Assembly: GCA_016219325.1 (NCBI GenBank)
Contig: JACRNH010000014.1
Span: forward strand, 132 to 64,131
DNA length: 64,000 bases
Direction of reading: 5' to 3'
DNA from: Candidatus Collierbacteria bacterium
GTDB taxonomy: Bacteria > Patescibacteriota > Microgenomatia > UBA1400 > JACPES01
Position numbers and translations under genes: made by a program. Positions 31,118 through 48,095 of the stretch are shown here, piece by piece (position 1 is the stretch's first letter; every line of letters begins with the position of its first letter). The notes below the pieces were generated by a model. That model worked only from the letters and a program-made list of their open reading frames with translations, made no database searches and had not been told where the DNA came from.

Positions 31118-31140
31118 TGATTCTGAGGAAAATTGAAAAT

Positions 31141-31178
31141 GTCTCTACCGCGCCATATTCGCGCCACTATCCGCGCCA
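31141..31178. repeat. GC-rich tandem motif (tctctaCCGCGCC atattCGCGCC actatCCGCGCCa), copy B
   Basis: Three 11-12-bp units immediately upstream of the ATPase start. Same orientation as copy A. Confidence 0.6.
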
Positions 31179-32248: not shown

Positions 32249-32273
32249 TTCATTAGTTTTTGTTACAAATCCA

Positions 32274-32489
32274 TCATCTAAAGAATTCAGGAATTTCAAC
32301 CTTTAATGCCTTTGCAATCTTGTATAGCACGTAAACACTAGGAGAATAGCGGGCATTCTCCAAATGCCCCACATACGTCCTGTAAAGCCCTGCACGGTCT
32401 GCTAGCTCTTCTTGGGAGACATTCCTCTTCTTCCTCCACTTTTTGATTCTTTTACCGACTTCAACTGTAAGCTCTCTTTTGGATAACAT
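32274..32489 (-). CDS. XRE-family helix-turn-helix transcriptional regulator
   Basis: VSQEELADRAGLYRTYVGHLENARYSPSVYVLYKIAKAL. Confidence 0.7.
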   Translation of the reverse strand: MLSKRELTVEVGKRIKKWRKKRNVSQEELADRAGLYRTYVGHLENARYSPSVYVLYKIAKALKVEIPEFFR

Positions 32490-32564
32490 CCTATCTAAAT
32501 TCTCTCTGATTATCAGAAAACGACAACGCGGTAAACATAGACTTTATAAGGAAAATCGTTTATA

Positions 32565-33419
32565 ATGAGGCTAATCAAGTTATGGATAAAATCGATGAAA
32601 AACAAACTTCCTCAGGTAAAATTTATGCCTGCCTTCCTTGTTTTTTTAGTAATCGTTACTCTTATCTGTGCAAACGAAATAATCAAATTCAATCAATTCA
32701 ATAATTATCTTAAACAAGCCGTGGTTTTATCCGCTTATGGAAAATCCCAAGAAGCCCAAGAGAGCTTACGGTTAGCAAAAGAGAGGATAAATACCACTAT
32801 TCTTGTTAAGATCATCAAAAATTGGGAAATTGACCGGACAGAAAAGCAAATCAATGAAATTGGACAATTAGTAGACGAAAAAGTGAGAAGGGTGATTAAT
32901 GAGGAAATGACAACTTCCTCGTCAACATCTACTCCAACTCCCGCGCCCATACAACAAAAACTTTCAACTTTAATTCCGGATCCAACGCGTCCACCAGAAG
33001 ATAAATCCTCTTACGGATATGATTCCTATTACCCGATAATACTGTCTTTTTCCGATAATAAGGGCGGGCTAATCAAATACTCGCAATACAATCAGTATCC
33101 ATATGGCTCGCAAAATACAGGCATCACTCTAAAGACTGGCGATTCCATAACTTGGAAGGCTGAAGCAAGCGACCCAAAAGGCAGACAAATTTCATACAAT
33201 CTAAACTCAAATTCACAACGGTTTAACGATATTTATGGACGAGGAGAATATAAAACTACGAGTCAGTTTGACTATGCGATTACAGAAGAAGATATAAAAA
33301 GTGCAGGAGATACCTTGCGGATGGTTTTATACATTAGGTCTGAAAAGGATAACTACAGAACGGGTGGCGGCGGAAATGATGATTCAACTTATCTTGACTA
33401 TAAACTCCAACCTAATTAA
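32565..33419 (+). CDS. Secreted or membrane-anchored protein with a Ser/Thr/Pro linker (hypothetical)
   Basis: N-terminal TM, an SSSTSTPTPAP linker, and a Tyr/Gly-rich C-terminus. Confidence 0.45.
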   Translation: MRLIKLWIKSMKNKLPQVKFMPAFLVFLVIVTLICANEIIKFNQFNNYLKQAVVLSAYGKSQEAQESLRLAKERINTTILVKIIKNWEIDRTEKQINEIGQLVDEKVRRVINEEMTTSSSTSTPTPAPIQQKLSTLIPDPTRPPEDKSSYGYDSYYPIILSFSDNKGGLIKYSQYNQYPYGSQNTGITLKTGDSITWKAEASDPKGRQISYNLNSNSQRFNDIYGRGEYKTTSQFDYAITEEDIKSAGDTLRMVLYIRSEKDNYRTGGGGNDDSTYLDYKLQPN

Positions 33420-33424
33420 AAAAT

Positions 33425-33853
33425 ATGGAAAACAAAACAAATTGGTCTTTAATTAAGCAAATACCTTTGTGGGGATGGGGGTTAATTCTGATTCTGTCTA
33501 TTGGTTTTTTATCATCTCTTTCAATCCCCAACAGAGAAACAAAAAACAATAGTAACTCCAATGTAGTCAAGGAGGTCAACAAGCAAACTCAGGCCAAAGT
33601 TAACTTCACTGGCACTCAATTTGTGATAACCAATGCTAATGATTTTGACTGGGAAGAAGTCGAAATCATCATTAATGAAAAATATCGGTACAAAACTGGT
33701 CTAATGAAATCTGGCTCAACCTACGAAATCGGAGCGAGACAATTTACCGATGGCAAAAATGTTCGATTTAATCCTTTCGAGATAAAGCCAGCAGAGATAA
33801 GGATTTGGGTTAAAGAGCCATGGAGTGATGATTGGTACGGAGAACTGAAGTAA
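33425..33853 (+). CDS. Membrane-anchored protein (hypothetical)
   Basis: 142 aa with a single N-terminal TM segment. Confidence 0.4.
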   Translation: MENKTNWSLIKQIPLWGWGLILILSIGFLSSLSIPNRETKNNSNSNVVKEVNKQTQAKVNFTGTQFVITNANDFDWEEVEIIINEKYRYKTGLMKSGSTYEIGARQFTDGKNVRFNPFEIKPAEIRIWVKEPWSDDWYGELK

Positions 33854-33860
33854 GTTGCAA

Positions 33861-36800
33861 CTATTTTTTCTTGTTCAATGCTTCCAACCGAATACCAATC
33901 TGTTTAGTCACATTTTCTTTAACTTTGGCAAAGACTGGTTTAGATAAGATTTGAGGCAATCTCCTCTCTAGTTTTATCAATTCTTCTTTTGTTGCTGATT
34001 TAATGGCAATAGACCATAAAGCACCGAAGTCGGTAGCCGTTTCTAATATTGGCTGAACTGGTGTTTTTGCTGCAATCGCTCTCGAAACTAAATCTGCAAA
34101 AATATTGCTGATATAGTCTATCCAGTAAATTTTATCTTCAGTTATAAGACCAGGTCTCCACATCTTTGAGATGAACTGGAGAAACACGGCACTAAAACTC
34201 CTCAGGTCGGAACCAGGCAGAAAGATTTGATTTATCAAATGATAGCTTCTTGCACGAAACTTAAAATCATCCTCTGCGACTATTACATAGAGGTCATCAC
34301 CACTGAAACTTACAAAGGTGTAAAAACATTCCGCGAGTTTACCAATTGCTTTTGAATACATTGTTGGGTCTAACAATCCCTGCTCTCGAATTTTTTGGAT
34401 AATTAACCAAGTATTCAATGGGGTTATAGCCTCTGATTTAAGAAGCCTATATAACCTAAAATCATCTGTGACCATGATCGTCCCCCTCTTTTTAGCGAGG
34501 TTCATCGAATCAATGAGCCAGCTTTCAAAAAGGTCATTTGTCTTTTGCCCTTTCAATTTACCTTTTGGAACGTGCTTTATGATTTTTATAGCAGTGCTAC
34601 TTCTAAGAAAGTTCCACAACCTCCTAAGACTTTCATTTTCTTCTTGCAAAAGCTCATCTTGAATTTTTTGAAAAAGCGAAAAGGAAATCTCCATCTGTGG
34701 GCATATTTTCTCGGTATCATTAAGAAGATTTAACTTTGACAGTGTGAGTAAGGATAGGTAATCAAATACAAAGACCTTATCTTTTGAATAGTTATCTTCT
34801 AGTTCTTTTCTAAACTCAACCGATGGCAGGGTGTACTCAAACGGCATTTCTGGATCTCTGCCAGACCATACGGTTATATACGGCTTCTTAAAAGTATTCT
34901 GCAGGAAGTAGGAGGGAATAGGCTGTTGTACGTATATTTGCTTAATTCTATTCGTCCACTCTCTCCTATCTTGAATCATTTTGATAATTTTTCCCTTATC
35001 CTTTCTATAGTCTATCTTTTGGATAGATTTTAGTTCTGGAAATTTTTCATCGAAAGCTAGCGCTCCCTCTAACAATCTGTCTCCACCTTCCTCGGAGGCA
35101 TACCTTAACATAACTGCCCCATAATGAGATAAAACCATTTGTACAGCAGGACCTTTTGGCAGTTGCTCAGCAAACCCCCTTGCTTTTGAGGCGGCTAATA
35201 TTGCCTTGTTTTTATCTCCTAGTAATACTTCGACAAGGCTTACGTCCAACCAGTACTGAAAATCATGTTTGTTTGTGGCTTCCTCCTCAATTTTTTGAAA
35301 TAGACCCCGAGCTATTTCTGGACAGCCATTATAAAGAAATGCTCGAGCGATTCTTATGGTTTCTTTATAGGAAATTTTGTCAAAATCAGGTAAAGATTGT
35401 AGTAGTGATAACGAAACTTCAAAGTCCCTCTTTCTAAATGCCTCAACTGCTTTCAGGAATTTGTCTCCTAGAGTGGATTCATTGGGTATATCACTAATCG
35501 GTAAAGCCATTCTCTTAAGCTTTTGCTCTCCCAACCATGTCCTAACTACATTTTGAAAGTAAAAAACTTCGTCATAGAACAGTGTTAGCTCCTTCTCTCT
35601 AGCCACAGACATCGCTTCATCAAAGTCTGCCTTCGCTTGGTTTAAATGCGTCTTTTTTTGAAACTCTGGGGCAATGTCTGAATAGCCAACGGAGTACGGT
35701 ACGGCATCTTTCTCAAGAGCTATAGCAAGCATGACGCGTCCTCTTAACAATAGACTTTCAACATCGTGCTTAAGCTTACAAGAAATATCTGCAAACTTAA
35801 AAGCATTATCTAACTGCCCAGCTTCTAGGTAAAAATGCCCTACAGTAAGCGATAAGACGTCATCGGAAGTAAACAGCTGCGAATATTGAACGCCTTTTTC
35901 TATGAAACCAATTACACCAGACACTCCTTCTTTAACTCTGACTAGTTTCAAATACACTTGTAATATCGCGGGGTCCTGATCCCTTCTTGTTTCTACCATC
36001 AGTGGTTGAAGTATCTGTTGTGCTTTATCTAGTTCACTTTTAGCTTCTTGTTCTTGTAGCTTTTGGCTTTTGTTTATGTGAACCGTAGCCAAGTTTTTGA
36101 CAGCAATTATGAAATCTGTATTTGCCTTAACTGCTTTCCTGAAGTACTCAATAGCTTCATCTAATTCATCTTCAATGCTGCAAGCAACTCCTATGTTGTT
36201 GTAGACTTTCGCTAATTCATTCCCAAAGTCAGGTTTATCTTCAATCTTCCCAAGAATTTTGAACAATAGTGTTTTGGCTTCTCCAATACTGCCCCTATCG
36301 AGCAAGTCTTTTGCTATTTTAATCTCTTCGTCTATAACTGATCTCTCTATGCCTTTGCCACTTAGGGCAATTGAGGTGGGTTTTTGTTCGTTTTGAGGAG
36401 TGTAAATCGACAACACATCTTTTTTCTGTTCTAACTGCTTTGCTTTCTTTACATCCTTATCTGTTGGTATTCTTTTTTGTCTTCTCGGTGTCGTTTTCAC
36501 AGAGAAAATCTTTTGTTCCTCTTTTCCTTCAAGACCCTTCTTTATCACTTGCTCTTTCCAAACCCCTAATATTCTTTTTCTCTCTGTAAGAGAAAGTTTG
36601 ATAGTCTCCCCATAAATATCTTTATAAATCTTAGGAAAACAGCCTATGAGGTCTTTAATCTGTTGTCTTACGGTCCAAAGGACAATTCTAAACGGATAAC
36701 TATGCTTCTGGAGGGAACCATCTACTACTTCTCTAAATTCGTTGTCAACAAAGCCGAATGGAGCAAATATACACCAACAATCACTGGGGGTACTGGAAGA

Positions 36801-37085
36801 GTAAAACTGACTAAGTTTGGTGTGTGTTTCGGTTTTTGGGATTAGTGTTTCCTTGCGACTCTCACAACCGTGACTTTTTGACTCTATTGCCCAGGCAAAC
36901 TCAATCTCTTTATCGTCAATTTTTGCAGACCACTTAGATATGTGATCCTTGCCAAATTGCAATCCACCACTTTGTGGATTTAATTCTAAAGGTAGGAATT
37001 TCCATTCTTTCAGAAGACAAGTTAAAAATTCGTGCAGTATTTTTTCATACTTGTCGCCCTTAGGCTTAGAGCCCTGTATTTTCAT
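33861..37085 (-). CDS. Large TPR-repeat protein (1074 aa), hypothetical
   Basis: TPR-like helical repeats in the central region, e.g. VYNNIGVACSIEDELDEAIEYFRKAVKANTDF. The N-terminal ~200 aa and the C-terminal third are unassigned. Confidence 0.65.
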   Translation of the reverse strand: MKIQGSKPKGDKYEKILHEFLTCLLKEWKFLPLELNPQSGGLQFGKDHISKWSAKIDDKEIEFAWAIESKSHGCESRKETLIPKTETHTKLSQFYSSSTPSDCWCIFAPFGFVDNEFREVVDGSLQKHSYPFRIVLWTVRQQIKDLIGCFPKIYKDIYGETIKLSLTERKRILGVWKEQVIKKGLEGKEEQKIFSVKTTPRRQKRIPTDKDVKKAKQLEQKKDVLSIYTPQNEQKPTSIALSGKGIERSVIDEEIKIAKDLLDRGSIGEAKTLLFKILGKIEDKPDFGNELAKVYNNIGVACSIEDELDEAIEYFRKAVKANTDFIIAVKNLATVHINKSQKLQEQEAKSELDKAQQILQPLMVETRRDQDPAILQVYLKLVRVKEGVSGVIGFIEKGVQYSQLFTSDDVLSLTVGHFYLEAGQLDNAFKFADISCKLKHDVESLLLRGRVMLAIALEKDAVPYSVGYSDIAPEFQKKTHLNQAKADFDEAMSVAREKELTLFYDEVFYFQNVVRTWLGEQKLKRMALPISDIPNESTLGDKFLKAVEAFRKRDFEVSLSLLQSLPDFDKISYKETIRIARAFLYNGCPEIARGLFQKIEEEATNKHDFQYWLDVSLVEVLLGDKNKAILAASKARGFAEQLPKGPAVQMVLSHYGAVMLRYASEEGGDRLLEGALAFDEKFPELKSIQKIDYRKDKGKIIKMIQDRREWTNRIKQIYVQQPIPSYFLQNTFKKPYITVWSGRDPEMPFEYTLPSVEFRKELEDNYSKDKVFVFDYLSLLTLSKLNLLNDTEKICPQMEISFSLFQKIQDELLQEENESLRRLWNFLRSSTAIKIIKHVPKGKLKGQKTNDLFESWLIDSMNLAKKRGTIMVTDDFRLYRLLKSEAITPLNTWLIIQKIREQGLLDPTMYSKAIGKLAECFYTFVSFSGDDLYVIVAEDDFKFRARSYHLINQIFLPGSDLRSFSAVFLQFISKMWRPGLITEDKIYWIDYISNIFADLVSRAIAAKTPVQPILETATDFGALWSIAIKSATKEELIKLERRLPQILSKPVFAKVKENVTKQIGIRLEALNKKK

Positions 37086-37107
37086 AGTTATATTGTATCG
37101 AAGCAGC

Positions 37108-37326
37108 TCATCCGTTTATGAGTTTTTGAATATCTTCCAAACGGTAGCGTCTGTCTCCTGTAACATTGGGATTACTCCTTTTAGGGTGTGCCCTCGAACC
37201 AATCCTTATAGCCACCAATCGACTTTCTTTATCCCACCTTCTCAGCGTGGCGGGGTGGACGCTCAAAAGTTTGGCGGCTTCTTTAATTTTTAACAATCTT
37301 GAAATTTTTGTTTTTGTTTCGTCCAT
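37108..37326 (-). CDS. Excisionase/AlpA-like (HTH_17) DNA-binding protein
   Basis: LLKIKEAAKLLSVHPATLRRW...RYRLEDI. Confidence 0.6.
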   Translation of the reverse strand: MDETKTKISRLLKIKEAAKLLSVHPATLRRWDKESRLVAIRIGSRAHPKRSNPNVTGDRRYRLEDIQKLING

Positions 37327-37404
37327 AGTCGACTCGTTTCTTTAGCTTAATTATGTTAAATTATACATTAGCACTGGTTAATTATAAAGACAATCAAGAT
37401 AAAT

Positions 37405-38157
37405 ATGAGTTTTGAACCCATAAGCATAAAGATTGATGACTTAAAACTATTTGCAGACGTAGCTTTTGCAATTGATAGTCCATTTTTCATCAACGAAGCT
37501 GTCAAACTCAGAAAACAATACGGTATCACTGAACCCCTTGGGGGGAGTTCTTATCAAACTTGGGCTGTCGAACACTTAAGCGAGAAGGGTATTAAAATTC
37601 TCTTTAAACAAGTATCTGAAATTCGAGCCCGCATGATACTGACCGCTAATTATCAAGAAGTTTTCGAAAAAGCTGTTTTTGGTTGTGATATTGAAAATGG
37701 AGATTACGAAACAACTATGCTTATCAACTTTCAAAAACTACCCAACTATTTGAGCTATAAGCTACCAATATCTGAAATGTATGCAATTCTTCTTTCACCC
37801 CAAACAAGATATGACGATGTTAAAAACACATTTGCCAGATATGAAAAGCTCATGGCTTCGTTTAGAGAAAAAATAGATACCGTTAACTTGTTTGATAATT
37901 ATAATCAAAGTAAAAGCAACATCAAAACTGTTAGGAAATGGTACTGGATTAGGTACGGGGATGTAGTTTCGAATCGGTCGGAAAAACCAAAAACCTACCC
38001 TGAAATATTAAAGGAGTGGGGGCGTAAATGTCCAAAATGTGAAGAGGGTCATGCGACTGCTGGAGAAAATGCAAGATGCCCCTATTGTCGTATTACAGAC
38101 CAAAATATCCTAGAAAAACTTGTTCCCGAGTATAGAAAAAGGTTAAGACAGCCCTGA
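37405..38157 (+). CDS. Hypothetical protein with a C-terminal Cys4 zinc ribbon
   Basis: CPKCEEGH...CPYCRI motif. Confidence 0.45.
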   Translation: MSFEPISIKIDDLKLFADVAFAIDSPFFINEAVKLRKQYGITEPLGGSSYQTWAVEHLSEKGIKILFKQVSEIRARMILTANYQEVFEKAVFGCDIENGDYETTMLINFQKLPNYLSYKLPISEMYAILLSPQTRYDDVKNTFARYEKLMASFREKIDTVNLFDNYNQSKSNIKTVRKWYWIRYGDVVSNRSEKPKTYPEILKEWGRKCPKCEEGHATAGENARCPYCRITDQNILEKLVPEYRKRLRQP

Positions 38158-38379
38158 CGGTTTTCCTCATCAAATCTTCCGTGACTCTCTTTCTTTAATT
38201 TGTAACCATATGGTTAGACAGATAATTTTGTCTGACTGATATGGGTAATCAAAAAATTAATCAATCTAAAAAGGAAGGCGAGCCTACGCTTGAGGGCATC
38301 GTGGAAGCGTGGGTTAAGTTGTGCCTTTTCCATATCAAAAAAACCAAAGAATTGGTTAATCAATATAAAGATAAAAAAT

Positions 38380-38655
38380 ATGAAAGCAAAACAATATAAC
38401 AAACCAGTATTTTCGACAGACAACTTTGCTTTGGCGGTTTTCCTTAAAACCAAATCGTGCAGGTACCTGCACATTTCAAAAGACAATCCTCGACACGCAA
38501 CATTCCATTTTGAAGATAGCTCCGAAAGAGAAAGGCTAACCGCTGGGTTTTGGCAAGGTACAGCGTTAGTCGAACCCCGTGCTTTTTATAACAACCAGAG
38601 AGAGTTTAAGACATTACTTTACGACAGCAGCTATCCAACCAAAATGACAACCTAA
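38380..38655 (+). CDS. DUF5659-like small protein (phage-associated)
   Basis: Start is probably ATG 38380 (MKAKQYNKPVFSTDNFALAVFLKT...). The ORF track starts at 38290. Confidence 0.4.
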   Translation: MKAKQYNKPVFSTDNFALAVFLKTKSCRYLHISKDNPRHATFHFEDSSERERLTAGFWQGTALVEPRAFYNNQREFKTLLYDSSYPTKMTT

Positions 38656-38683
38656 CTTACTTTGAAAATTTATCAAAATAAAT

Positions 38684-39088
38684 ATGACTGAATTACTAGA
38701 GTTAGCAACCATAAAAATAGATTTAAAAATGCAGGGTAATTTTTTAGCTAAAGTAACACTAAATTGGCGAGATGAGTTTGAAGTACGTTTTTTTCGAATT
38801 CTTCGCTCAAGCACGGGTAAGGCGTGGCTTCAGCCACCCTGCCTGGAAAAATTTGGGTGGGCGAAATGTTTTGGCGTACTTGATCGTGATAACTGGAAAG
38901 AGTTTATGAGCAGGGTAATCGTTCAATTCAAAGAAGAATTAAAGGAAAAGGTTAAAGAAGGCACCTATTCGCCAGCGGTTTTAAGGAAGATAGAAGAAGC
39001 AGAAGACGAAAGCATCGATCTCAATGATATTCCCGATGATCTGGGAGGGGTAAATATTAAACCTATACGCACTTATGAGAACAAATAG
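38684..39088 (+). CDS. Hypothetical protein
   Basis: 134-aa ORF within the element, with an acidic C-terminus. Confidence 0.4.
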   Translation: MTELLELATIKIDLKMQGNFLAKVTLNWRDEFEVRFFRILRSSTGKAWLQPPCLEKFGWAKCFGVLDRDNWKEFMSRVIVQFKEELKEKVKEGTYSPAVLRKIEEAEDESIDLNDIPDDLGGVNIKPIRTYENK

Positions 39089-39178
39089 TAACTATATAGT
39101 TACAAGTGACTATATGTAACTATAAAAGAGGATGGATAACGAAAGGATTGTGCATTGATTGTGCATTGATTGTGCATC
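39088..39178. promoter_or_regulatory. Repeat-rich region upstream of serine recombinase 1
   Basis: Perfect 16-bp palindrome GTAACTATATAGTTAC at 39088-39103, an extra GTAACTATA copy at 39116-39124, and three 11-bp tandem repeats GATTGTGCATT at 39146-39178. Confidence 0.5.
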
Positions 39179-39260
39179 AAAAACTGAATAGAAACACAAT
39201 TTGCTTAATTAAATATAATTAGTTATAATTAAGTTTAATTAACTAATTTTAAGAAACAAA

Positions 39261-40850
39261 ATGAAAAATTGTTTCATCTATATAAGGGTTTCGACCGATA
39301 CGCAGGCAACTGAGGGTTACTCTTTGGACAACCAAAAAAGAGCTTGCAAAGAGTACGCAGTAAACAAGGAGTATCACCCAAAAGAGGTATTTGTTGACGA
39401 TGGAAAATCTGGGAGAACCGCCAATAGGCCTGAATTTCAGGAAATGTTGAAGAAATTGAAGGATAAACAGGCAGAGTGTGTCATCATCTACAAAATTGAC
39501 CGTTTTGCCCGTAATGTAACTGATTTTTCAAGGGTGAGAAAAGAATTCATTGAGGCGGGCATTGATTTTCTTTCAGTTATGGAGGGCGACCTAACCAATG
39601 GATCAAGCCTTATCTCGAACATCTTCGCCTCGGTCGCAGAATGGGAATCGGAAGTTAATAGTACCAGAACAATAGATGCTCTGGAACAAAAATTTCGAGG
39701 CGGTTGGCAGCCCACCCCACCGCCGATAGGTTATATGACAGTCGGAGAAAAGAATGAGAGAAAATCGTGCGAGCCAGACCCCTATACCGCTCCCATAATC
39801 AAAGAATTGTTTGAGCTCTACGCAACTGGCAACTACTCCCTATTGGAACTACAAGACTGGTTAAGTCAAAAAGATATTGTTTCAAAAAGCGGGACCATCA
39901 TTGGTCACTCAGTAATCAACAACATCTTGAGGAACCCTTTCTACTACGGTCTTATCCGTTGGCACGGAGTGTCAAAAATAGGTAAGCAGAAACCTATCCT
40001 CAAAAAGGATCTCTTTGACACCTGCCAATATGTTCTAGCTAAGCATCGAAGTTTTTTAATCAGGAAAAGGAAACACGATTTTCTGTTGCGGGGTTTTATA
40101 TTCTGTGACAATTGCGAACAACGATATACCGCCGAGTGGCATTATGATGCCCACAAGCTAAAAAACAGAGGTGGCAAAATTGGCTATTACCACTGTCAGA
40201 AAAGGGATAGGAATGGTTGTTCCGCTCCATATGTGGAAATTGAAGATTTACAGAAGCAAGTTGAAGATCAATTTAAGAAAATGCAGTTCTCGCAAAAGTT
40301 TATCGAGATGGTAGTCGTTAAGACTAAAGAGGCAATGACTGAAGGACGAAGTTATCTTAATAATCAACGAATGCAATTAGTGAACCGTAAGACATCGCTT
40401 GAAACAAAGCGAAACAAGCTTGAAGATTCGCTTCTTAACGAAGCTGTTGATAAAGATACCTACAAGAGGCTCCACGTCAAGATCCAAGACAAAATATACG
40501 CAATTAATGACAGGATTGAAGAACTTGAAGATAAGGCTAATATCGATACCAATCTAATTGAGGAAGTGCTGTCCTTTACAAGGGATATTTACAATACATA
40601 CAAGCAGTCACCCGCATTTCTTAAACGCCACTATTTACGGTTCTTCTTTGAGAAGCTGTATGTCAATAATTGTAAGATTTCTAAAATTGAACCGACCCCG
40701 ATTTTCGCGATACTACGGGAAAATCAAGAGGTTATAATAACGGATAATCAGCTCAAGAAATGGAATGAGTTTAGGACTCTAAGCCTTCTGGGTGAAGAAA
40801 TAGAATATTCAGAAATCATCATGGAACAAACAAGGGAGTTGCTTTCCTGA
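39261..40850 (+). CDS. Large serine recombinase (resolvase/invertase catalytic domain plus recombinase and zinc-ribbon domains)
   Basis: YIRVSTDTQ catalytic Ser motif with the conserved DRFAR motif, a Cys cluster (CDNCEQRY...CQKRD..GC) and a coiled-coil C-terminus. Confidence 0.9.
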   Translation: MKNCFIYIRVSTDTQATEGYSLDNQKRACKEYAVNKEYHPKEVFVDDGKSGRTANRPEFQEMLKKLKDKQAECVIIYKIDRFARNVTDFSRVRKEFIEAGIDFLSVMEGDLTNGSSLISNIFASVAEWESEVNSTRTIDALEQKFRGGWQPTPPPIGYMTVGEKNERKSCEPDPYTAPIIKELFELYATGNYSLLELQDWLSQKDIVSKSGTIIGHSVINNILRNPFYYGLIRWHGVSKIGKQKPILKKDLFDTCQYVLAKHRSFLIRKRKHDFLLRGFIFCDNCEQRYTAEWHYDAHKLKNRGGKIGYYHCQKRDRNGCSAPYVEIEDLQKQVEDQFKKMQFSQKFIEMVVVKTKEAMTEGRSYLNNQRMQLVNRKTSLETKRNKLEDSLLNEAVDKDTYKRLHVKIQDKIYAINDRIEELEDKANIDTNLIEEVLSFTRDIYNTYKQSPAFLKRHYLRFFFEKLYVNNCKISKIEPTPIFAILRENQEVIITDNQLKKWNEFRTLSLLGEEIEYSEIIMEQTRELLS

Positions 40851-40853
40851 TGA

Positions 40854-41600
40854 TTATTTAGAAACTTCTATAAAGCAATTTGTATCTAACTTACATCTAT
40901 ATCGGATTTCCATTTTTAGTATCTGATTGGGCAATTTGGTTGTAGAAACGAATCCTCCAATAAAATATTGACGTTTTTTATTTGTCTTATAAGAAAGGTC
41001 TTTGTCTAGAAATTCTTCAGTAATATTTACTTCTTTTTTCTTTGGTTCTAATGGAAATGGCAACTGTCCTAATGGTAATTTGGTCATGTCATATAAAAAT
41101 TCTGAAGCAGAGCTAGAAACTAGACTTTCAGAATTTACTAGGTGTCCCTGTTTGCTATGGCCATTAACAATGAAAAAATAAACAGACTCATTTTTGACAT
41201 CTATGGCACCCGTCTTTATATAAAGATATGCTTCAGACAGATCCCCTTGGATATTGATTTCTACGCTATTTCGCTCTAAATAATCTCTTAATCAGTCGGG
41301 GTTTGTAATAAAAGCTGGAGTCATCAACGGTTTGTCTTCGCTAGAGATTGTTGCGACCTTAAATCGTGATGTCTGGATTAAGAGGTCTACTTGTTCTCCC
41401 TTTTTCTTCTCTATACCTTCTGTCGTAACATCGGGGACCACCACCCCTTCTTCTTTTTCTTTAGGAGTAATCCTGGAGATCGCAACAGGAAAAATCGTTG
41501 TAAATACCGATGCCAAAAATACGAGAAGAATACCCGTTAGAATTAGATCCCATTGGATTTTGCCATTTCCGCTAACTTGATTTACTGTCATTTTCAACAA
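40854..41600 (-). pseudogene. Membrane-anchored protein gene interrupted by a single in-frame TGA
   Basis: ORFs 41292-41600 and 40854-41087 are in the same frame. The 204 nt between them has no stop codons, and the only interruption is the TGA at 41292-41294. Confidence 0.4.
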
Positions 41601-41949
41601 TTGATTTTATCTTAGCAGGACTTAATATTAGCAGAAATAATGAAATGTATCCATAAGTTAATGTCCATGCGGATAATGATTCCTTATTGAGGTATGGGAA
41701 TAGTCTCCTATAAAATAAGACGCCGATAACCCCAAAAGCTACTTCCGGCATTCCCTGTCTGTATATATTGCCAACAGTGTTTCAATAATTAACTTCAATG
41801 AAGTCCGTAAACCTAGCTCCGATAAGAAACAATATAAATCCTGAAAAGATTACTATATAGAGCTGAGAGTAAGACACAAAAGCTTTTGGGTTTCCCCAAA
41901 GTGAAGCTTTTCCGATAGCTCTTATAAAATTAGTCTTCATCAAGTTTAA

Positions 41950-42528
41950 TTATTCTTCCTTTATTTCGTCTAATTTTTCTCCAATTTCGTAGATAAAATA
42001 TAATAGTGCTTCAATGAATTTTAGAATTCCTGTCGCCTCTTCTTGTTCTCCAATTTTAATTTCATGGTTTTTCTCGTTCCCTATATTTTTCAAGTATTCT
42101 AACAATCTCCCTGCATTAGGTGGAATGTAGTTGGACGAGGCAAGATGTTTTATGTAATCTTTGAATGACTCTCCTTCTTTTGCTTGAGCAACATCAACAG
42201 CAATATGCATGATTAGTTTACGACCGAGCAATATAGCTGCTGTGTAACAATCGTTTTTCATTGACTCTCTTATTTCGTAATAAATCCTTTCTATGCCTAT
42301 TGGTAAATTTAGAATCGTTTTTCCCAGCATCGGACCAGGATACTGCATCTGGCTATAGAAGAAAGTAGGCCTTCCACAGTTGGTACAAATATAAATCCTG
42401 GCGCTGAAATTTTTATGAAAATATCCTTTATCTGATCCAACTTTATCCCCACAGAATCCGCAGACATAACTTTGAGGATTTAACTGCAAAAGCCCCTGCC
42501 AATCTGGCCAGCCGATATTGAACTCCAT
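41950..42528 (-). CDS. DUF4145-like protein with an N-terminal Cys4 zinc finger
   Basis: CGFCGDKV...CTNCGRP, then a helical C-terminal domain. Confidence 0.45.
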   Translation of the reverse strand: MEFNIGWPDWQGLLQLNPQSYVCGFCGDKVGSDKGYFHKNFSARIYICTNCGRPTFFYSQMQYPGPMLGKTILNLPIGIERIYYEIRESMKNDCYTAAILLGRKLIMHIAVDVAQAKEGESFKDYIKHLASSNYIPPNAGRLLEYLKNIGNEKNHEIKIGEQEEATGILKFIEALLYFIYEIGEKLDEIKEE

Positions 42529-42601
42529 AACTTGGCTATTATCTCACAAATTCTGATAATCTCATCACTGTAATTTTCAATTTTTGTGGTCTAAACTAAG
42601 G

Positions 42602-42835
42602 TTACAGAAAATCTCGTAGTTTTACTTTCAATACTTTTGCTATTTTATAGAGGCCGCGTAACGAAATATTGCTTTCACCCCTCTCAATCCGTCCGTAGGT
42701 GGTCCAGTGGATACCAAGTCTATCAGCAATTTCCTCTTGGGTTAGGCCTTTTACTTTTCTAACCCTTTTCATCCTTCTGCCAACTAGATTGGAAATTTTA
42801 TAGCGCTTCATGCTATCTTTGAACATAGACAGCAT
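42602..42835 (-). CDS. XRE-family HTH transcriptional regulator
   Basis: LTQEEIADRLGIHWTTYGRIERGESNISLRGLYKIAKVL. Confidence 0.7.
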   Translation of the reverse strand: MLSMFKDSMKRYKISNLVGRRMKRVRKVKGLTQEEIADRLGIHWTTYGRIERGESNISLRGLYKIAKVLKVKLRDFL

Positions 42836-42917
42836 TTTGCAATTACTCCATAGCGTCTGACGCTTTATTTGGCTTGACTTTAGATTGAAAATTTGTTAGT
42901 CTCCTCTCCGAGATGAT

Positions 42918-43448
42918 ATGGAACTAAAAAAATATATGAAAATCTTAAAAATTGGCTGTATTTCTTTCTTTGTAATCGCATTGATAACAGTTATTCTTTC
43001 GTTTAACTATGGGAAGTATGAAAACGAACCAAAGAGAGAAACCAAACAGACTCAAGCTGTTGACGCTCAAGTCGTAATCCCCACGACCGCCTTTCCGATT
43101 TATGAAAAACTAAGCCATGAGAAATCAGAAACTACCGAAAACTTTTCTTTTCTAGTTAAAGTTGAAGATAAATCAGCCAAGAATTTAAAGCGATTGGCAC
43201 TAGAAATCAAGAGTAAAGAATGTAAAATGTCCTGTAATATCAGCTTGTTTGATGATAGACGAGCGGCGGAACTTGACGGTGAGTACAAGAGACTGAATAC
43301 CATAGAAGAACAAAACGGTTGGAAGGAGAGAAACTATATTTATGTGGCCGATCACTTAGCAGGATTTCTGGAATTTAGTAGCGAAACATTTTCTTACTAT
43401 CCGTATAGAGACTGGTATTACGAAGAGTTGAAAGCAAAACAACAATGA
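42918..43448 (+). CDS. Membrane-anchored or secreted hypothetical protein
   Basis: N-terminal TM, 176 aa. Confidence 0.4.
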   Translation: MELKKYMKILKIGCISFFVIALITVILSFNYGKYENEPKRETKQTQAVDAQVVIPTTAFPIYEKLSHEKSETTENFSFLVKVEDKSAKNLKRLALEIKSKECKMSCNISLFDDRRAAELDGEYKRLNTIEEQNGWKERNYIYVADHLAGFLEFSSETFSYYPYRDWYYEELKAKQQ

Positions 43449-43804
43449 AAAAAAACATTATTGTAGGTATTCTGATTGCCGCTATTAGCGGAGTTATTGC
43501 TTCGCTAACCACACTGAAGATTAGCGGTGTCAAATGGCAGAAAGAACAGCAGGCAAATCTTGATTCCTCGGCGTTGCCTATTATTGCGTCGGAAGGCGGT
43601 ATTGATGATAGCCAGGAAATCTCTACTAATCTAGTTCAGACTCGGTACGTTACTGGACCAGGAAGCGACGGTTACTGGGCGTTGTATTGCCTCTATCCCA
43701 AAGACGAATTTGGATTTTCTACCCGGTGGGCGGTACTTAAGGCAAAAGGCGAAGGGTGTCCGGCAGATTACACCTCTGTTCAACTTTGGGGAAAGAAGAA
43801 TTAA
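43445..43804 (+). CDS. Secreted hypothetical protein
   Basis: Signal-like N-terminus and a 4-bp overlap with the upstream gene. Confidence 0.4.
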   Translation: MKKNIIVGILIAAISGVIASLTTLKISGVKWQKEQQANLDSSALPIIASEGGIDDSQEISTNLVQTRYVTGPGSDGYWALYCLYPKDEFGFSTRWAVLKAKGEGCPADYTSVQLWGKKN

Positions 43805-43812
43805 ACGCTTGT

Positions 43813-44259
43813 CTAAATGTTTGTTTGGCAACTTTGTATTTTTTGGTGAATAGTCCGAACTATATTCTTGAAGGAAAGCGAGTTGTCAGTAGTCGGTGTG
43901 TTATTCAGCAACAATCCATTGGCTATCTTTCGGTCAAAGCAGTTGAGCTGTGAGGCGAAAACTACTTGTAGGGCCATTAGACGATGTCTGGGGTTCAATC
44001 TTTCATTATTAGCAATTTCTGCTCCGATTCGGCTGACCCAGTTCGCTACATCTTCAAGTACTGCCATTTCTTCTGTAATAAAACGGTCTTTAAATCTGTT
44101 TAATCGCTCGCCCCTTACCTTCCTTAGGCGTTTAGCGATGAAATTCTTGTCATGATTTAAAAGTTGAGCCAGCGATCTGACTGACGCCTTAGGATTCTGC
44201 ATGAGGCATTGTTGAATTTGGGAATCTATCTCGCGGATGTAAACAGAACTTAACTTCAT
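43813..44259 (-). CDS. Hypothetical protein (possible DNA-binding)
   Basis: 148-aa ORF. The overlapping + strand ORF was rejected. Confidence 0.35.
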   Translation of the reverse strand: MKLSSVYIREIDSQIQQCLMQNPKASVRSLAQLLNHDKNFIAKRLRKVRGERLNRFKDRFITEEMAVLEDVANWVSRIGAEIANNERLNPRHRLMALQVVFASQLNCFDRKIANGLLLNNTPTTDNSLSFKNIVRTIHQKIQSCQTNI

Positions 44260-44300
44260 GTATGTTATTGTACGTTAATAATCAAAATATCTAAATCAAT

Positions 44301-44918
44301 ATGGCGTTTGATCAAATAAAAATCAAAATCTCTAATAAGCGAAGATTTGAGTCAGTATCAACTCTGGTTGATAGAACAGACTTTGAAGAATTGGTTGTTT
44401 TTTTACGGAACAAGATTGGCCTTACTAACAAACTTATTCCATATGAACACTTTGATCAATTCTATAAATCACTTGATTACCACCTTAATTCAGAAGAACT
44501 TTCAGAATATAACCAAATGATTGATGAAATGGAACTCCTAGAAAATAGGAATCAAAAAACACCTGAGGAAGCAAAAACCTACTCCATTTTACGGCAAGAA
44601 ATTAGGAGATGGCAAAATCCCAAGCATAACTTTCTTACCCGCTTAGACAAATACCTATCTGATCACAAAATTGCTTCTGGATATAAAACAGTAGTAATAA
44701 AAGCGATTGTCTGTGGGGAAATTAAAGAAAACGACTTCACACTGAGTGTGGTTTCTAAAGGACTTAGAAATATAGACCGAGATAGAAGATGGTACTGGGT
44801 AAACCGCCGATTGTCTGGGGCAAAGAGGATGGGGTACATGAAAATTGCAAAAAGGCATAAAGAATATCTAAGAACAGTTGAAAACGCCATAAAGACCTAC
44901 GCATCAAGATTAACTTAA
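44301..44918 (+). CDS. Hypothetical protein
   Basis: 205-aa ORF, basic C-terminus. Confidence 0.4.
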   Translation: MAFDQIKIKISNKRRFESVSTLVDRTDFEELVVFLRNKIGLTNKLIPYEHFDQFYKSLDYHLNSEELSEYNQMIDEMELLENRNQKTPEEAKTYSILRQEIRRWQNPKHNFLTRLDKYLSDHKIASGYKTVVIKAIVCGEIKENDFTLSVVSKGLRNIDRDRRWYWVNRRLSGAKRMGYMKIAKRHKEYLRTVENAIKTYASRLT

Positions 44919-44987
44919 CCTCTAGGGGTATCTAAAGTAAGGTTGGGAAATTTTAAAATTGTTTTTCATCGGGGAAAATAACCCCAA

Positions 44988-45239
44988 ATGGAAAATAAGA
45001 ATCATCTATATAAATCAGATTCGCTTCATTTAGCAGCATTTCTCATAGCTAAAGGGTGTGAGTTGGCAGAGGTTGAAAGACTCTCTGATGACAGTAGAAA
45101 GCTGTTATTTTGTTTTCCCGATACTAACAAGCTTCAGAATTTATTAAGTGAATTTTTCGCCCTCCGAGCTAAAGTTAGGCCTCAAGACTTTGCTAATGCC
45201 CAAAGGACATTGAAGACAATTATTTTTGCTCAAAAATAA
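44988..45239 (+). CDS. Hypothetical small protein
   Basis: 83-aa ORF. Confidence 0.3.
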   Translation: MENKNHLYKSDSLHLAAFLIAKGCELAEVERLSDDSRKLLFCFPDTNKLQNLLSEFFALRAKVRPQDFANAQRTLKTIIFAQK

Positions 45240-45799
45240 TTGGGGCGAAATGATAAATAAACAGCTAATTAAGGAACTAAAAACGATATTGAATGACGAG
45301 TTCGGGATCAATGAAAAGGATGGTGTTGTTGCTGAAGTAGCTAACTATCTCATCAATATGTTTGAAGTTCTAATTGAAGTAAAAACTGAGATAAAAACCA
45401 AGAATAACCCCGCTTTCTGTTCCGGCGCGATACTTAATGTGTGTATTGCTCAAACACTGTAGGCAAGATGAATATTGCTATCCTGGCCAAAGAACCATTG
45501 CCGATACTCTTGGTTATAGTCCTAGATACATCAGGAATCTTGTTTCAGAGCTGGAAAGCCAACATCTGGTTTCTAAAAAACGGAGAGGCTTTAATAAAAC
45601 AAATACCTATAGAGTAATCAAAGACTTGACACTTGATGGGAACTCTACTTCCCCTCACTTAAGAACTAAGTATCCGCTCAATCAAGGAAACCAGTTTCCG
45701 ACTAATATAAATTATAGAATAGGAAAAAGTAATATAAAAGGAATGAAATCTTTAAGAGAAGCATTAATCAAAATCGGGGTTAAACAAAAAATTGACTAG
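45226..45799 (+). CDS. HTH_36-type helix-turn-helix protein (phage replication/initiator-like), possibly frameshifted between ORFs 45226-45462 and 45437-45799
   Basis: The second ORF carries CYPGQRTIADTLGYSPRYIRNLVSELESQHLV. The first ends with NPAFCSGAILNVCIAQTL. They overlap out of frame. Confidence 0.4.
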
Positions 45800-45823
45800 C
45801 CGTGTTTAGCGAAAAACCAATAT

Positions 45824-47467
45824 TTGTTACTATGCGAGCCTAAGGATAAACAATATATGAAGGCTGTACTACTTTGCAGGGTATCAAGTAAGGAACAAGG
45901 AGAGTCTGGTTACTCACTTCCGGCACAGGAAAAACTCCTCAGTAGTTATACGACCGGAAAAGGCTTCAAAATAGCCAGGGTGTTTTCTATATCAGAATCA
46001 GCAAGCGGCAAGAAACAAAGGGAAGTATTTAACTCAATGATAGCCTACGTAAAAGAAAACGACATTAAGGTTATTATCATTGAGAAGGCAGATAGGTTTA
46101 CCAGAAATTTCAAGGACTCAGTTGCTTTGTATGAGTGGTTAAATGAAGATGAAGAAAGACAACTCCACTCAGTAAAAGATTCTCTTATCCTTCATAAAAA
46201 TTCACGGTCTCAGGAAAAACTAAACTGGGACATCAGAATCGTTTTTGCTAAGAACTACATAGATAACCTATCCGAAGAGGTTAAGAAGGGCCAAAAAGAG
46301 AAATTATCTCAAGGGTGGCTACCAACGAAACCACCACTGGGATATAAGACGGTCGGGGTTCAAGGCCATAAGATTCACATTATTGACGAAGAAATTGCTC
46401 CCTTGGTCAAGAAAATGTTTGAGCTATATGCTACCGGCGACTACTCTATTAAACGGTTGGTTAAAGTGATGAATGCCAATGGCCTAAGAAACAAGCTAGG
46501 AAGGAAATTAGTCGGCAGCAGAATTCATCAACTCCTGACCGATCCTTTCTATGTTGGGAAAAACCGTTGGCTAGGGAATTTATATGATGGGAAGCAGGAT
46601 ACTTTTATCAGCAGAGAAATATTTGATAGGGTCCAACAGCTTCTAAAAAGCAAATCGGCACCAAGAGTTCGTATCCATGATTTCTTATTCCGAGGCCTTT
46701 GCCGATGCGCTCGCTGTGAAGGAATGATTACATGGGAGACCCACAAAGGCATCATCTACGGCCATTGCAATATTTACTATCACCAATGTACGGCTCGCAA
46801 ATGGGCAACAGAGGCAATTGTTGAATCACAATTAACTGATGTATTTGAGAAACTACAGATCCGCAACCAGCGGCTTTTGGAATGGGTTAGAAAAGCACTT
46901 AAGGAGAGCCATCAGGATGAAGTCGTCTATAGAACATCATCTTTGAATGAGCTTAACGAGTATCAAAAACAGATTAGGCGGCGGCTGGATCGCTTGTATG
47001 ACGATAAGATTGACGGCAAGATCACGGAAGAATTTTATCAGCGAAAATATCGCCAATATTCAGATGAGCTGGATGATGCAAGCCGAAAAATCAAAGGCCA
47101 TGATGTGGCTAACCTCAAATACATGGAGTTAGGAATCAATCTTTTTGAATTATCGCAACAAGCCAAGGATATTTATCTTAATGCGGGTATTGAGCGAAAG
47201 CGAAAGCTGCTCCGCCTTTTCTTCAGCCGATTAATGCTTGATGAGAAAAAGCTAACCTATAACTTCACCAAGCCCTATGAAATTCTTTCCCAAGCCGTAG
47301 ATGTTACCAATAGTTCTAAACTGGTAAAAGTTGAAGAAAAGTCGGACAGAATTATAGAACATAAAATAATGATTGATGATTCAGAACAAATAGGTGATTT
47401 ACAACATCTTCGTTCTATCGTGCTCCCCCGGCTGGACTCGAACCAGCGACATCCTCGTTACAGGTAA
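45824..47467 (+). CDS. Large serine recombinase 2. The annotated 3' end runs antisense across the tRNA-Asn 3' exon.
   Basis: LLCRVSSKEQ catalytic Ser motif, a recombinase domain and Cys clusters. The last ~15 codons (PRLDSNQRHPRYR) are the antisense translation of the tRNA exon. Confidence 0.85.
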   Translation: MLLCEPKDKQYMKAVLLCRVSSKEQGESGYSLPAQEKLLSSYTTGKGFKIARVFSISESASGKKQREVFNSMIAYVKENDIKVIIIEKADRFTRNFKDSVALYEWLNEDEERQLHSVKDSLILHKNSRSQEKLNWDIRIVFAKNYIDNLSEEVKKGQKEKLSQGWLPTKPPLGYKTVGVQGHKIHIIDEEIAPLVKKMFELYATGDYSIKRLVKVMNANGLRNKLGRKLVGSRIHQLLTDPFYVGKNRWLGNLYDGKQDTFISREIFDRVQQLLKSKSAPRVRIHDFLFRGLCRCARCEGMITWETHKGIIYGHCNIYYHQCTARKWATEAIVESQLTDVFEKLQIRNQRLLEWVRKALKESHQDEVVYRTSSLNELNEYQKQIRRRLDRLYDDKIDGKITEEFYQRKYRQYSDELDDASRKIKGHDVANLKYMELGINLFELSQQAKDIYLNAGIERKRKLLRLFFSRLMLDEKKLTYNFTKPYEILSQAVDVTNSSKLVKVEEKSDRIIEHKIMIDDSEQIGDLQHLRSIVLPRLDSNQRHPRYR

Positions 47468-47980
47468 TCCACTACTTTCGTAGAAGCTTGGACTATATCT
47501 TTGCCATGCTCAAATGAGTTTAGGCACTTTGGTATTTAGTCTCTACGGCGTCCCGCAAAAAATGTGGGTTCCCACGGTGTTACCGCTTAAATCGTAAAAG
47601 GCTTCACCGTTATCCCAAAGAGTTCATCCCTAAGTTTCCTTAGGAAGCTGCGTTTTGCCTGCGTGTATCTCTCTATGGCAATTTGCGCATACCAAAACGC
47701 ACTTGTCTATTTCTTTCTTAATCTTTTCCCATGATCGCGTAAGGCCGCGAACCGAAAGCCCAAAATCTTTTTGTTTCGGATCTCTATGGTGAAAATCAAG
47801 GGCATCTTGACAGCGCTGATATCCACAAATGACGCATTTCCCGCCTTTGTATTCACGAGCCATTTCTCGAAGGCGTTTTCGCCTTTCTGAAACAGCTCTC
47901 TTTAAATACTCGGAACGGTCGGCATAAGTCCTTGTATCTGGCATATACATCTGAGTATACCAAACTTATGACTTAATTCC
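47461..47980 (-). ncRNA. Group I intron in the tRNA-Asn anticodon loop
   Basis: The 5' exon ends in U and the intron ends in G. The 3' portion on the gene strand carries AGACUAAAU and AGAUAUAGUCC, matching the J6/7-P7 and P7' core strings of group I introns. The ORF lies in the 5' part. Confidence 0.65.
47630..47950 (-). CDS. HNH homing endonuclease encoded within the group I intron
   Basis: CVICGY...DFHHRDPKQKD...CANCHREIH, an HNH motif with Zn-binding cysteines. Confidence 0.7.
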   Translation of the reverse strand: MYMPDTRTYADRSEYLKRAVSERRKRLREMAREYKGGKCVICGYQRCQDALDFHHRDPKQKDFGLSVRGLTRSWEKIKKEIDKCVLVCANCHREIHAGKTQLPKET

Positions 47981-48095
47981 ACAGCGAGGCGCTCTACCAA
48001 CTGAGCTACAGGGGAATGTCAATGTACAAGTCAGATTATATCAGGCAATAAATCCTGTCCGCCTGAATTTTTAATCAGAATGTTACAATTTTACG

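Follow-up and report, generated by a model that had tools for sequence, protein, structure and literature searches.

Positions 31205-47425 of the 64,000-nt stretch of contig JACRNH010000014.1 that we analyzed (the window; all coordinates refer to it) very probably hold two unrelated integrative elements, E1 and E2, which form a tandem array of 16.2 kb at the 3' end of a gene for tRNA-Asn(GUU). The host would be a Microgenomates-like member of the Patescibacteria, and each element would have been integrated by its own large serine recombinase (LSR). E1 (9,546 bp, 31205 to 40750) carries recombinase 1, and E2 (6,671 bp, 40751 to 47421) carries recombinase 2. The two are arranged head to tail. 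The initial annotation of this DNA had described one phage-like integrated element that ended at the tRNA-Asn 3' exon. We agree that the DNA is mobile and that its right end is the 3' end of tRNA-Asn, but it seems to be two elements in tandem, not one. Our argument is built on the junctions, on a pattern that holds across both recombinase families, on circular forms of relatives, and on the geometry of the attachment (att) sites, each of which is apparent from the sequences.

Junctions of the proposed array

The three junctions in the window have the core GCTC in common, and the flanking sequences exchange precisely there. The features that define the array are:

31137-31204 (+): left arm of attL; ends in TGG, the antisense of an encoded CCA
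31205-31208 (+): core GCTC of attL, left end of E1; aataactgGCTC/cctaaatc, which is left arm/orphan tail
31206-31365 (+): orphan recombinase tail, the P' arm of E1 (LPKSCSNIKGINIQAILASFQNVAYIGVLKQRWEEIKKLQNPIQLAVVPNLK, then a stop codon)
39261-40850 (+): recombinase 1, the LSR of E1
40751-40754 (+): core GCTC of the E1/E2 junction; ataatcaGCTC/aagaaatgg, which is recombinase 1 P arm/E2 P' arm (WDDFRT-type tail)
40752-40850 (+): native tail of E2 (LKKWNEFRTLSLLGEEIEYSEIIMEQTRELLS, then a stop codon), of the WDDFRT class, now fused to recombinase 1
45857-47467 (+): recombinase 2, the LSR of E2 (with an upstream TTG at 45824)
47422-47425 (+): core GCTC of attR; ctatcgtGCTC/ccccggctgg, which is recombinase 2/tRNA-Asn antisense
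47423-48015 (-): tRNA-Asn(GUU), the target; 5' exon 48015..47981, group I intron 47980..47461, 3' exon 47460..47423

At the right end, GCTC is antisense to positions 71-74 of the tRNA, which take in the end of the acceptor stem together with the discriminator and the base that follows it, and C47423 is the antisense of discriminator G73. The codons of recombinase 2 that follow the junction leucine (47423-47425) are antisense to the 3' exon of the tRNA. The reading frame crosses the entire exon in 13 codons, ending in ...SIVL/PRLDSNQRHPRYR with its stop codon in the intron. The initial annotation had noticed this overlap; it is real, and we consider it meaningful, not incidental.

At the middle junction, the nucleotide similarity of recombinase 1 to its relatives breaks off at 40754-40757, and from L497 on (40752-40850) recombinase 1 is encoded by E2.

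The left end was found by comparison with L002, the closest relative of E1 (L-numbers label relative loci or contigs). Nucleotide similarity to L002 starts exactly at 31205. The left portion of E1 is 72-82% identical to L002, with gene order kept, and the identity is 82% through a gene for a TPR-PIN protein. Just inside this edge, 31206-31365 encodes LPKSCSNIKGINIQAILASFQNVAYIGVLKQRWEEIKKLQ... with no recombinase ahead of it, and tblastn matches this peptide to tails that are fused to recombinases elsewhere. The orphan tail and the edge of similarity to L002 place the left end 5.9 kb further left than the start at 37108 that was originally given. (We also searched for a left-end orphan tail with a strict WDDFRT-type motif, which matched the tail of recombinase 1 only; the tail at the true left end is of a different class.) The initial annotation could not find a tRNA-derived repeat at the left end, and neither could we: the element ends have 4-6 bp in common and no larger repeat. 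This is as expected for serine recombination, which duplicates nothing beyond a short core.

The right-hand neighbour of E1 relatives varies: it can be the tRNA itself, E2, or another type of element. The recombinase 1 relatives L003, L047, L048, and L096 adjoin tRNA-Asn directly, with no E2 between. Relatives of recombinase 2 are found alone or as a free circle. Because recombinase-1-type and recombinase-2-type relatives occur separately, we view E1 and E2 as two independent elements.

We propose that in both LSR families, attP spans the last codons of the recombinase gene, with crossover within the 4-bp core GCTC. The tRNA-side half-site (B') would comprise the acceptor 3' strand and the T arm. 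Integration would leave the tRNA body host-encoded and replace only the 3' trailer, which now begins with CAC where CCA had been encoded. It would also fuse the recombinase open reading frame (ORF) to antisense tRNA and move the DNA for the native C-terminal tail of 30-50 residues (the P' arm) to the far end of the element. Because attP would lie inside the recombinase ORF, the enzyme's C-terminus would change on integration. And because B' would be unchanged, a newcomer could insert at the same tRNA, with the older element pushed outward. E2 would have arrived after E1, since only the tRNA-proximal junction retains the tRNA half-site. This order would explain why recombinase 1 bears the tail of E2 and why the tail of E1 is orphaned at 31206-31365. 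We reconstructed the corresponding junctions: the empty site (B/B') would read ...GAAATAACTGGCTC/CCCCGGCTGG..., the E1 circle (P1/P'e) ...ACGGATAATCAGCTC/CCTAAATCTTG..., and the E2 circle (P2/P'b) ...GTTCTATCGTGCTC/AAGAAATGGAATG.... A composite circle of 16 kb would have the junction P2/P'e, and E1 by itself at the tRNA would have P1/B'.

Recombinase families, tails, and attachment sites

Both recombinases had been described as full-length LSRs, and both do have Resolvase, Recombinase, and Zn_ribbon_recom domains. The match to PF00239 (Resolvase) has E = 4e-34 for recombinase 1 and 3e-19 for recombinase 2, and PF07508 and PF13408 are present in each. The R-V-S catalytic motif is invariant in both family alignments. 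The structure of the A118 integrase (4KIS) is a weak match to the recombinase. Given the alignment of the recombinase-1 family, AlphaFold places long paired helices at residues 345-441 in the C-terminal domain, which corresponds to a coiled-coil insertion. At the level of sequence, both enzymes look like LSRs: they have the catalytic domain, the Recombinase domain and zinc ribbon with a coiled coil, and the att geometry. Recombinases 1 and 2 are 27% identical to each other.

We found 2,584 homologues of recombinase 2, and every named one is from Patescibacteria (for example, from Levybacteria, Woesebacteria, or Minisyncoccia). Their C-termini are conserved as far as ...RPxWL and then diverge. 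Beyond RPxWL, the majority have peptides like PREDSNLQP, which is the translated antisense of the tRNA T arm, and a minority have the conserved tail WDDFRTLKW..I..PEL...Q..QLL. Similarly, most of the 2,144 homologues of recombinase 1 span just 93-95% of it before continuing into tRNA-antisense peptides. Recombinase 1 of the window ends in a WDDFRT-type tail (KKWNEFRTL...). There are few classes of tails, and the same ones are found in both recombinase families. That conserved C-termini are followed by divergent sequence or by shared tail classes implies that the tails are encoded beyond the recombination junction.

The tails also occur fused and orphaned. The class of tail at 31206-31365 is fused in frame to recombinase-1-type proteins elsewhere, such as the homologue P0184 of the circular contig L207. 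In the circular contig L190 and at other loci, recombinase-2-type genes carry a fused tail of the WDDFRT class, and tails of this class also lie as orphans upstream of recombinase-2-type elements that are integrated. At 14 loci or more, QRWEEIKKL-class orphan tails begin at GCTC, 6-11 kb upstream of recombinase-1-type genes; WDDFRT-type orphan tails start at GCTC at the same distance upstream of recombinase-2-type genes at 6 loci or more.

We surveyed 137 family loci, obtained by scanning representative genomes with the recombinase-1-family alignment and JGI metagenomes with the recombinase-2-family alignment. For the recombinase-1 family, junctions were placed by a protein motif, independently of GCTC; nevertheless GCTC was present in phase at 29 of 32 junctions. 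To identify the targets, we used structure-aware parsing (GCTC, acceptor, T arm, variable region, and anticodon stem, with the loop antisense being TTAACAG if intron-less or TTAC... if intron-bearing). GCTC is followed by antisense tRNA-Asn at 88 of the 132 resolvable junctions (40/58 in the recombinase-1 family and 48/74 in the recombinase-2 family). On sampled loci, ARAGORN reported tRNA-Asn on the minus strand, starting at the junction. Sublineages are found at other tRNAs in the same antisense orientation: tRNA-Gln at 10 loci, tRNA-Arg at 1, and tRNA-His in distant relatives of recombinase 1. (Examples are L151, L158, L175, and L176 for Gln, L132 for Arg, and L099 and L101 for His. The junction of the Gln-targeting group is GCTG, not GCTC.)

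Free circles of relatives were present among the contigs. L190 is an entire contig of 8,037 bp with a 123-bp terminal repeat; its recombinase-2-type gene continues in frame into a WDDFRT-type tail, and the contig lacks a tRNA. P0184, which is of recombinase-1 type with a QRWEEIKKL-type tail in frame, is on the 9,676-bp contigs L207, L208, and L209 from three sequencing runs, again with no tRNA. Each of these three contigs has a 30-bp terminal overlap, and they are cut at different rotations; set to a common start, they agree over 9,646 bp with 0 mismatches. The L207 circle has an E1-like layout, with cargo, a MerR helix-turn-helix (HTH) protein, XRE, DUF5659, a replication-type protein with HTH_36 plus DnaB_2, and the recombinase. 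We take L190 and L207-L209 to be the attP forms that our model predicts.

The geometry of the sites also fits an LSR. In all 81 of 81 tRNA arms, the T-loop motif TTCGAAC lies at +12 after GCTC, and in 10 of 13 recombinase-2-type P' arms, the motif TTT(A/C)GAAC lies at +17. For the A118-type integrase, Rutherford et al. 2013 (PMC3783163) showed that the attP copy of the motif for the zinc-ribbon domain lies 5 bp outward of its position in attB. The offset between +12 and +17 is exactly the 5-bp attP/attB shift of this serine-integrase model. The recombinase-1-type attP is an inverted repeat: GTTATAATAA, 10 nt, GCTC, 13 nt, and TTAATATAAC.

Does the exchange of tails matter? We propose that the tail is functional in the free form and that swapping it may alter the behaviour of the enzyme. 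It is quite possible, though we would not call it probable, that the swap has no function: the first codons of the tail would double as the P' half-site, the rest would be dispensable, and a conventional directionality factor alone would set the direction. WDDFRT and INIT, the most conserved first residues of the tails, do coincide with translated P' DNA motifs (TGGGACGATTTTAGAAC and TTAATATAAC), integrated copies finish in arbitrary short peptides, and E1-type elements have an excisionase-like HTH protein. Also, AlphaFold's confidence in the tail is low: the model is confident through the strand at 491-493, falls below 50 at residues 497-501 (the junction), and renders the tail as a separate low-confidence helix. 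But a block 57-117 nt past the core, which is outside a typical 25-bp half-site, has saturated synonymous change (mean pS of 0.92) and low non-synonymous change (mean pN of 0.21), with pN < pS in 105/105 pairs, although choosing the block by a protein pattern biases pN downward. This argues that the block is selected as a translated peptide.

On the most far-reaching reading, there may be a large clade of LSRs in Patescibacteria that uses tRNA 3' ends as attB (mostly Asn, with Gln, His, and Arg sublineages), with the T arm as the outer DNA motif and attP in its own ORF. The free and integrated enzymes would differ, and this switch of isoforms would help to set the direction of integration versus excision and might explain the stacking of elements. 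As a whole, we put this forward tentatively and with some doubt.

Other tail classes were also seen, fused or orphaned: ALVDYVGTYYR, PLVDIFKNRQIEFGF, and LEDRNVNIT... (L002 8848-8915; L064 11484; L090 1149; L102 8530; L211 586 and 12747). These imply further types of elements with the same GCTC core.

The intron of the target tRNA is 520 nt and splits the gene between anticodon-loop positions 35 and 36. It scores 44.7 bits against the group I intron family RF00028 (gathering score 50; E = 4e-10) and contains an ORF for an HNH endonuclease (47950..47630, 106 aa). ARAGORN, and Rfam at the gathering threshold, call no tRNA in the unspliced locus; the spliced exon sequence is called tRNA-Asn(gtt). 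The insertion point of the intron (antisense TTAC...) recurs in 26 of the 88 surveyed tRNA-Asn targets, with differing intron lengths; the intron in L003 is about 230 nt and has no ORF. A peptidase identical to the one in the right flank of the array is found on just one other contig, of 5 kb (Logan SRR12113407, L001). Position 1 of L001 corresponds to window position 47981, at the boundary of the 5' exon and the intron. The SRR12113407 sample, in which the same species is present, may therefore contain both intron-plus and intron-minus alleles, or another variant.

History and gene content of the proposed array

Several points weigh against our account of the array. Its support is entirely comparative. 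The initial annotation recommended comparison with related genomes that lack the insertion, and our searches for an empty site of this species came back negative: the reconstituted attB 25-mer has no match in metagenome contigs, searches with the flanking proteins turned up no close relatives, a scan of genome contigs for the right-flank peptidase found no relative, and no exact-protein matches for recombinase 2 or the left-flank ATPase are on record. The boundaries come instead from L002 and from the junctions of the families. A circular form of exactly E1 or E2 was not found either. The left arm at 31137-31204 looks like a recombinase P arm in the P register and not like a B-type arm, so the sites that E1 and E2 entered would both have been attR-like, and such insertions are disfavoured in the canonical LSR model. 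The left half-site may be of little importance in this system, or else the array has a more complex history. The inverted repeats of the recombinase-1-type attP are 27 bases apart, which is an odd number. Finally, the P' arm of E2 deviates from the family consensus at 4 of 17 positions, and E2 may be decaying, given the in-frame TGA in one of its genes.

The left arm agrees with the recombinase-1-type P-arm consensus at 12 of 16 positions, with no shift of register, and might thus be what is left of an older element. A hidden Markov model search of the six-frame translation of the window found no further recombinase fossils; the arm at 31137-31204 is too short to score. Within this P-like arm, upstream of attL, CGCGCCA is present three times (31149-31178, 11 and 12 nt apart), in a GC-rich patch with AT-rich surroundings.

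In other loci, the left arm of attL can look different. L089 (~370-390), L093 (~1365-1383), and L062 (~5300-5317) have a GATTATACAA- or GATAATAAA-like motif about 5 bp nearer to GCTC than in recombinase-1-type P arms. This is how a genuine B-type half-site would be expected to look; the window, L050, and L073 are in the P register, and the sample is small.

We also considered that the array might be a static, decayed genomic island, with immobile elements and an ORF that reads into the tRNA by chance. The in-frame TGA and the degenerate P' arm of E2 would fit this, as would the lack of an empty site or a circle for this species and the fossil junctions in relatives such as L211. However, both recombinase ORFs are full length, with a conserved catalytic Ser/Arg motif; the read-through is in phase and family-wide, which is not chance; and the orphan tail is still open and conserved. 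We think that decay is an unlikely explanation, and inactivity today would leave the construction history of the array unchanged. On the tandem-array model, both elements may still be active.

L211 (ENA contig k141_3081331, 586-15624) is a complex locus: it has two orphan P' arms and a recombinase-1-type gene whose tail is of the WDDFRT type, and it lacks a tRNA within 10 kb. It also has a fossil recombinase C-terminus at 15421-15624 (E = 5e-8). Evidently, arrays decay and rearrange.

The remaining genes and sites of E1 and E2 are as follows. (For the block of E1 at 31433-37085, the annotation is based on Pfam and PADLOC.)

31433-32248 (+): DUF4365 protein, E1 (Pfam)
32274-32489 (-): XRE protein, E1 (Pfam)
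32565-33419 (+): 284-aa ORF, E1
33425-33853 (+): 142-aa ORF, E1
33861-37085 (-): 1074-aa TPR/PIN-TPR-GreABC protein, E1 (Pfam, PADLOC)
37108-37326 (-): 72-aa MerR/HTH_17 excisionase-like protein, E1 (Pfam; PHROG 66, "excisionase and transcriptional regulator", E = 6e-7)
37405-39088 (+): E1 backbone, with a 250-aa ORF, DUF5659 (38380-38655), and a 134-aa ORF
39088-39178: palindrome and three tandem 11-bp repeats upstream of recombinase 1
41600..40854 (-): E2 reading frame with an in-frame TGA at 41292-41294
41950-42528 (-): DUF4145 protein, E2 (Pfam)
42602-42835 (-): XRE protein, E2 (Pfam)
within 40854-45799 (+): 176-aa and 119-aa ORFs, E2
43813-44259 (-): 148-aa winged HTH protein, E2
within 40854-45799: 205-aa ORF and 78-aa ORF, E2
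44988-45239: DUF5659 protein, E2 (Pfam)
45437-45799: HTH_36 replication-initiator-like protein, E2 (Pfam, PHROGs); short

Each feature listed in the initial annotation is indeed there, at the coordinates given, among them the excisionase-like HTH protein, the cargo (DUF5659, DUF4145, XRE, and HTH_36, to which we add the second copy of DUF5659 at 38380-38655), and the gene with an in-frame TGA. An alternative genetic code does not explain that TGA, as TGA terminates recombinase 1 and other genes in the window. L002, L003, and the circular L207 all have the MerR/HTH_17 gene at the corresponding place, and this gene is our candidate for the directionality factor of E1. The backbone genes of E1 have no sequence similarity to those of the circular relative; the analogy is positional only.

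The palindrome and 11-bp repeats had been suggested to be an attP-like or operator site. The sequences themselves are as described: the palindrome GTAACTATATAGTTAC is at 39088-39103, a third copy of GTAACTATA is at 39116, and three tandem copies of GATTGTGCATT are at 39146-39178. GTAACTATA has 4 copies in the window versus 0.25 expected by chance. We ruled out attP: the region is upstream of recombinase 1, it is not conserved in E1 relatives (where the alignment has gaps), and it is the GCTC core at the 3' end of each recombinase gene that makes up the att site. It is probably an operator or iteron-like region.

Could the region from ~37.1 to 47.5 kb instead be a single phage-like prophage, with two serine recombinases and one integration at the tRNA? 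The genes are contiguous, and among them are HTH regulators, an excisionase-like gene, and DUF5659, all frequent in phage regions. But among 20 ORFs from E1 and E2, PHROGs identified no capsid, portal, terminase, or tail genes, and matched only regulators, the excisionase-like HTH, a DNA-binding protein, and a replication-initiator-like HTH (11 of the 20 ORFs have no match at all, so novel virion genes are possible). IMG/VR has no member of either recombinase family: scans with single proteins found nothing, and an alignment scan gave only distant LSRs, at 38% identity or less. Furthermore, the internal GCTC junction at 40751 coincides with the end of every recombinase 1 relative, elements of the two recombinase types are found apart from each other, also as circles of their own, and the E1 backbone reaches left to 31205. 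A single prophage is highly improbable, and the label "phage-like" does not hold up.

That an unseen tyrosine integrase built a classical tRNA island, with the serine recombinases as cargo or resolvases, can be dismissed as next to impossible: the Islander work does give tRNA 3' ends as the classic targets of tyrosine integrases, but Pfam finds no tyrosine recombinase (Phage_integrase domain) within 31.2-47.4 kb, 4-6 bp are shared at the ends instead of a repeated fragment of displaced tRNA, and the junctions are the 3' ends of serine recombinase genes in ~130 loci.

Pfam also identified no relaxase, coupling protein, or type IV secretion genes in E1 or E2, where many ORFs are unannotated. Since virion, conjugation, and tyrosine-integrase genes were not found, and the cargo consists of regulators and defence-flavoured genes, E1 and E2 are probably small integrative plasmid-like elements, not prophages. 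As for replication genes, the circular L207 encodes a protein with HTH_36 plus DnaB_2; in the window, only the short HTH_36 protein of E2 resembles replication initiators.

The gene for the TPR plus PIN-TPR-GreABC protein is 82% identical in nucleotides between the window and L002 (2103-5327), which are from different samples; an E1 relative also comes from the sequencing run SRR22388067. In the cargo slot of other E1 relatives there is a methyltransferase (L003) or a KAP NTPase (L207). To the left of the array, 29681-31117 (-) encodes an AAA_14/DUF4143 ATPase that PADLOC matches to a candidate defence family (PDC-S01, E = 1e-103). The neighbourhood of tRNA-Asn looks like a hotspot for defence genes; the accumulation of defence-type cargo (TPR-PIN, DUF4365, DUF4145, KAP NTPase, and methyltransferase) at one tRNA suggests a defence-island hotspot in small genomes. 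Further left, positions 23000-26000 of the window are a second stretch of low GC content (0.35 versus 0.42-0.45 elsewhere).

Implications and comparison with known systems

The mobile DNA of Patescibacteria genomes is poorly charted. Besides settling boundaries that had been left open, our analysis gives a rule for delimiting such elements in this group: they have a GCTC core, with one end marked by an orphan tail and the other by a recombinase that reads into tRNA-Asn. Read in this way, the att sites (attL, attR, and attP) supply hundreds of natural examples, a dataset for testing the half-site model of serine-integrase specificity. Target switching within the recombinase clade (Asn, Gln, Arg, and His) can be mapped on a tree. 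If it is true that the exchange of tails controls activity, then it would be a new and very compact way for a recombinase to sense whether its element is free or integrated, and it would be relevant to the biology of mobile elements and to the engineering of directional integrases.

The archaeal integrases of the SSV1 type have attP inside the int gene, and integration splits the gene; these are tyrosine recombinases of archaeal viruses and plasmids. As in our proposal, the integrase gene contains attP, a tRNA gene is targeted, and the ORF differs between the free and integrated forms. Unlike the SSV1-type gene, which is split into two large pieces, the genes considered here encode bacterial serine recombinases, and only the last 30-50 residues would be exchanged, leaving the catalytic and DNA-binding domains intact.

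The filamentous phage phiRSM of Ralstonia integrates into a tRNA-Ser gene by means of a serine recombinase. So there, too, a serine recombinase has a tRNA 3' end as attB. But the phiRSM recombinase is small and resolvase-type, the element is an inovirus, and the identical core is longer; phiRSM has neither a tail swap nor the LSR architecture.

In the mycobacteriophages BPs and Brujita, immunity is said to depend on integration: reportedly (from the work of Broussard et al. in 2013), attP lies in the 3' end of the repressor gene, and a degradation tag is lost. Similarly to our proposal, attP is within the 3' end of a gene, and in those phages integration alters the C-terminus and the behaviour of the protein. 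The difference is that the repressor is cut in the phages, while here it would be the recombinase itself.

The tycheposons of Prochlorococcus are also small cargo elements with replication genes, found in streamlined genomes, specific for tRNAs, and arranged in tandem islands (bioRxiv 10.1101/2020.12.28.424599). In contrast to E1 and E2, which have LSRs, would have attP in the recombinase gene, and duplicate nothing, 910 of 937 tycheposons use tyrosine recombinases, and they carry a partial copy of the tRNA (same source).

Last, recombinases 1 and 2 share their set of domains (Resolvase, Recombinase, and zinc ribbon with a coiled-coil insertion) with the LSRs of A118/LI, Bxb1, phiC31, and TP901-1, along with short att sites, the lack of target duplication, and the 5-bp shift of the motif (PMC3783163). 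Durrant et al. 2022 surveyed 6,207 LSR/att pairs without any mention of tRNA, and among open-access papers and preprints, we found no description of a tRNA-targeting LSR with attP in its own ORF in Patescibacteria. Our system seems to differ from the characterised LSRs in having the 3' end of a tRNA as its target and attP within the recombinase ORF, with the result that the C-terminus would change upon integration. It also differs in its Patescibacteria hosts, in its non-viral carriers of 6-11 kb, and in that integration beside the P arm of another element is seemingly tolerated. To the LSRs, which are usually described as inserting into protein-coding genes, these families would add a tRNA-targeting mode.

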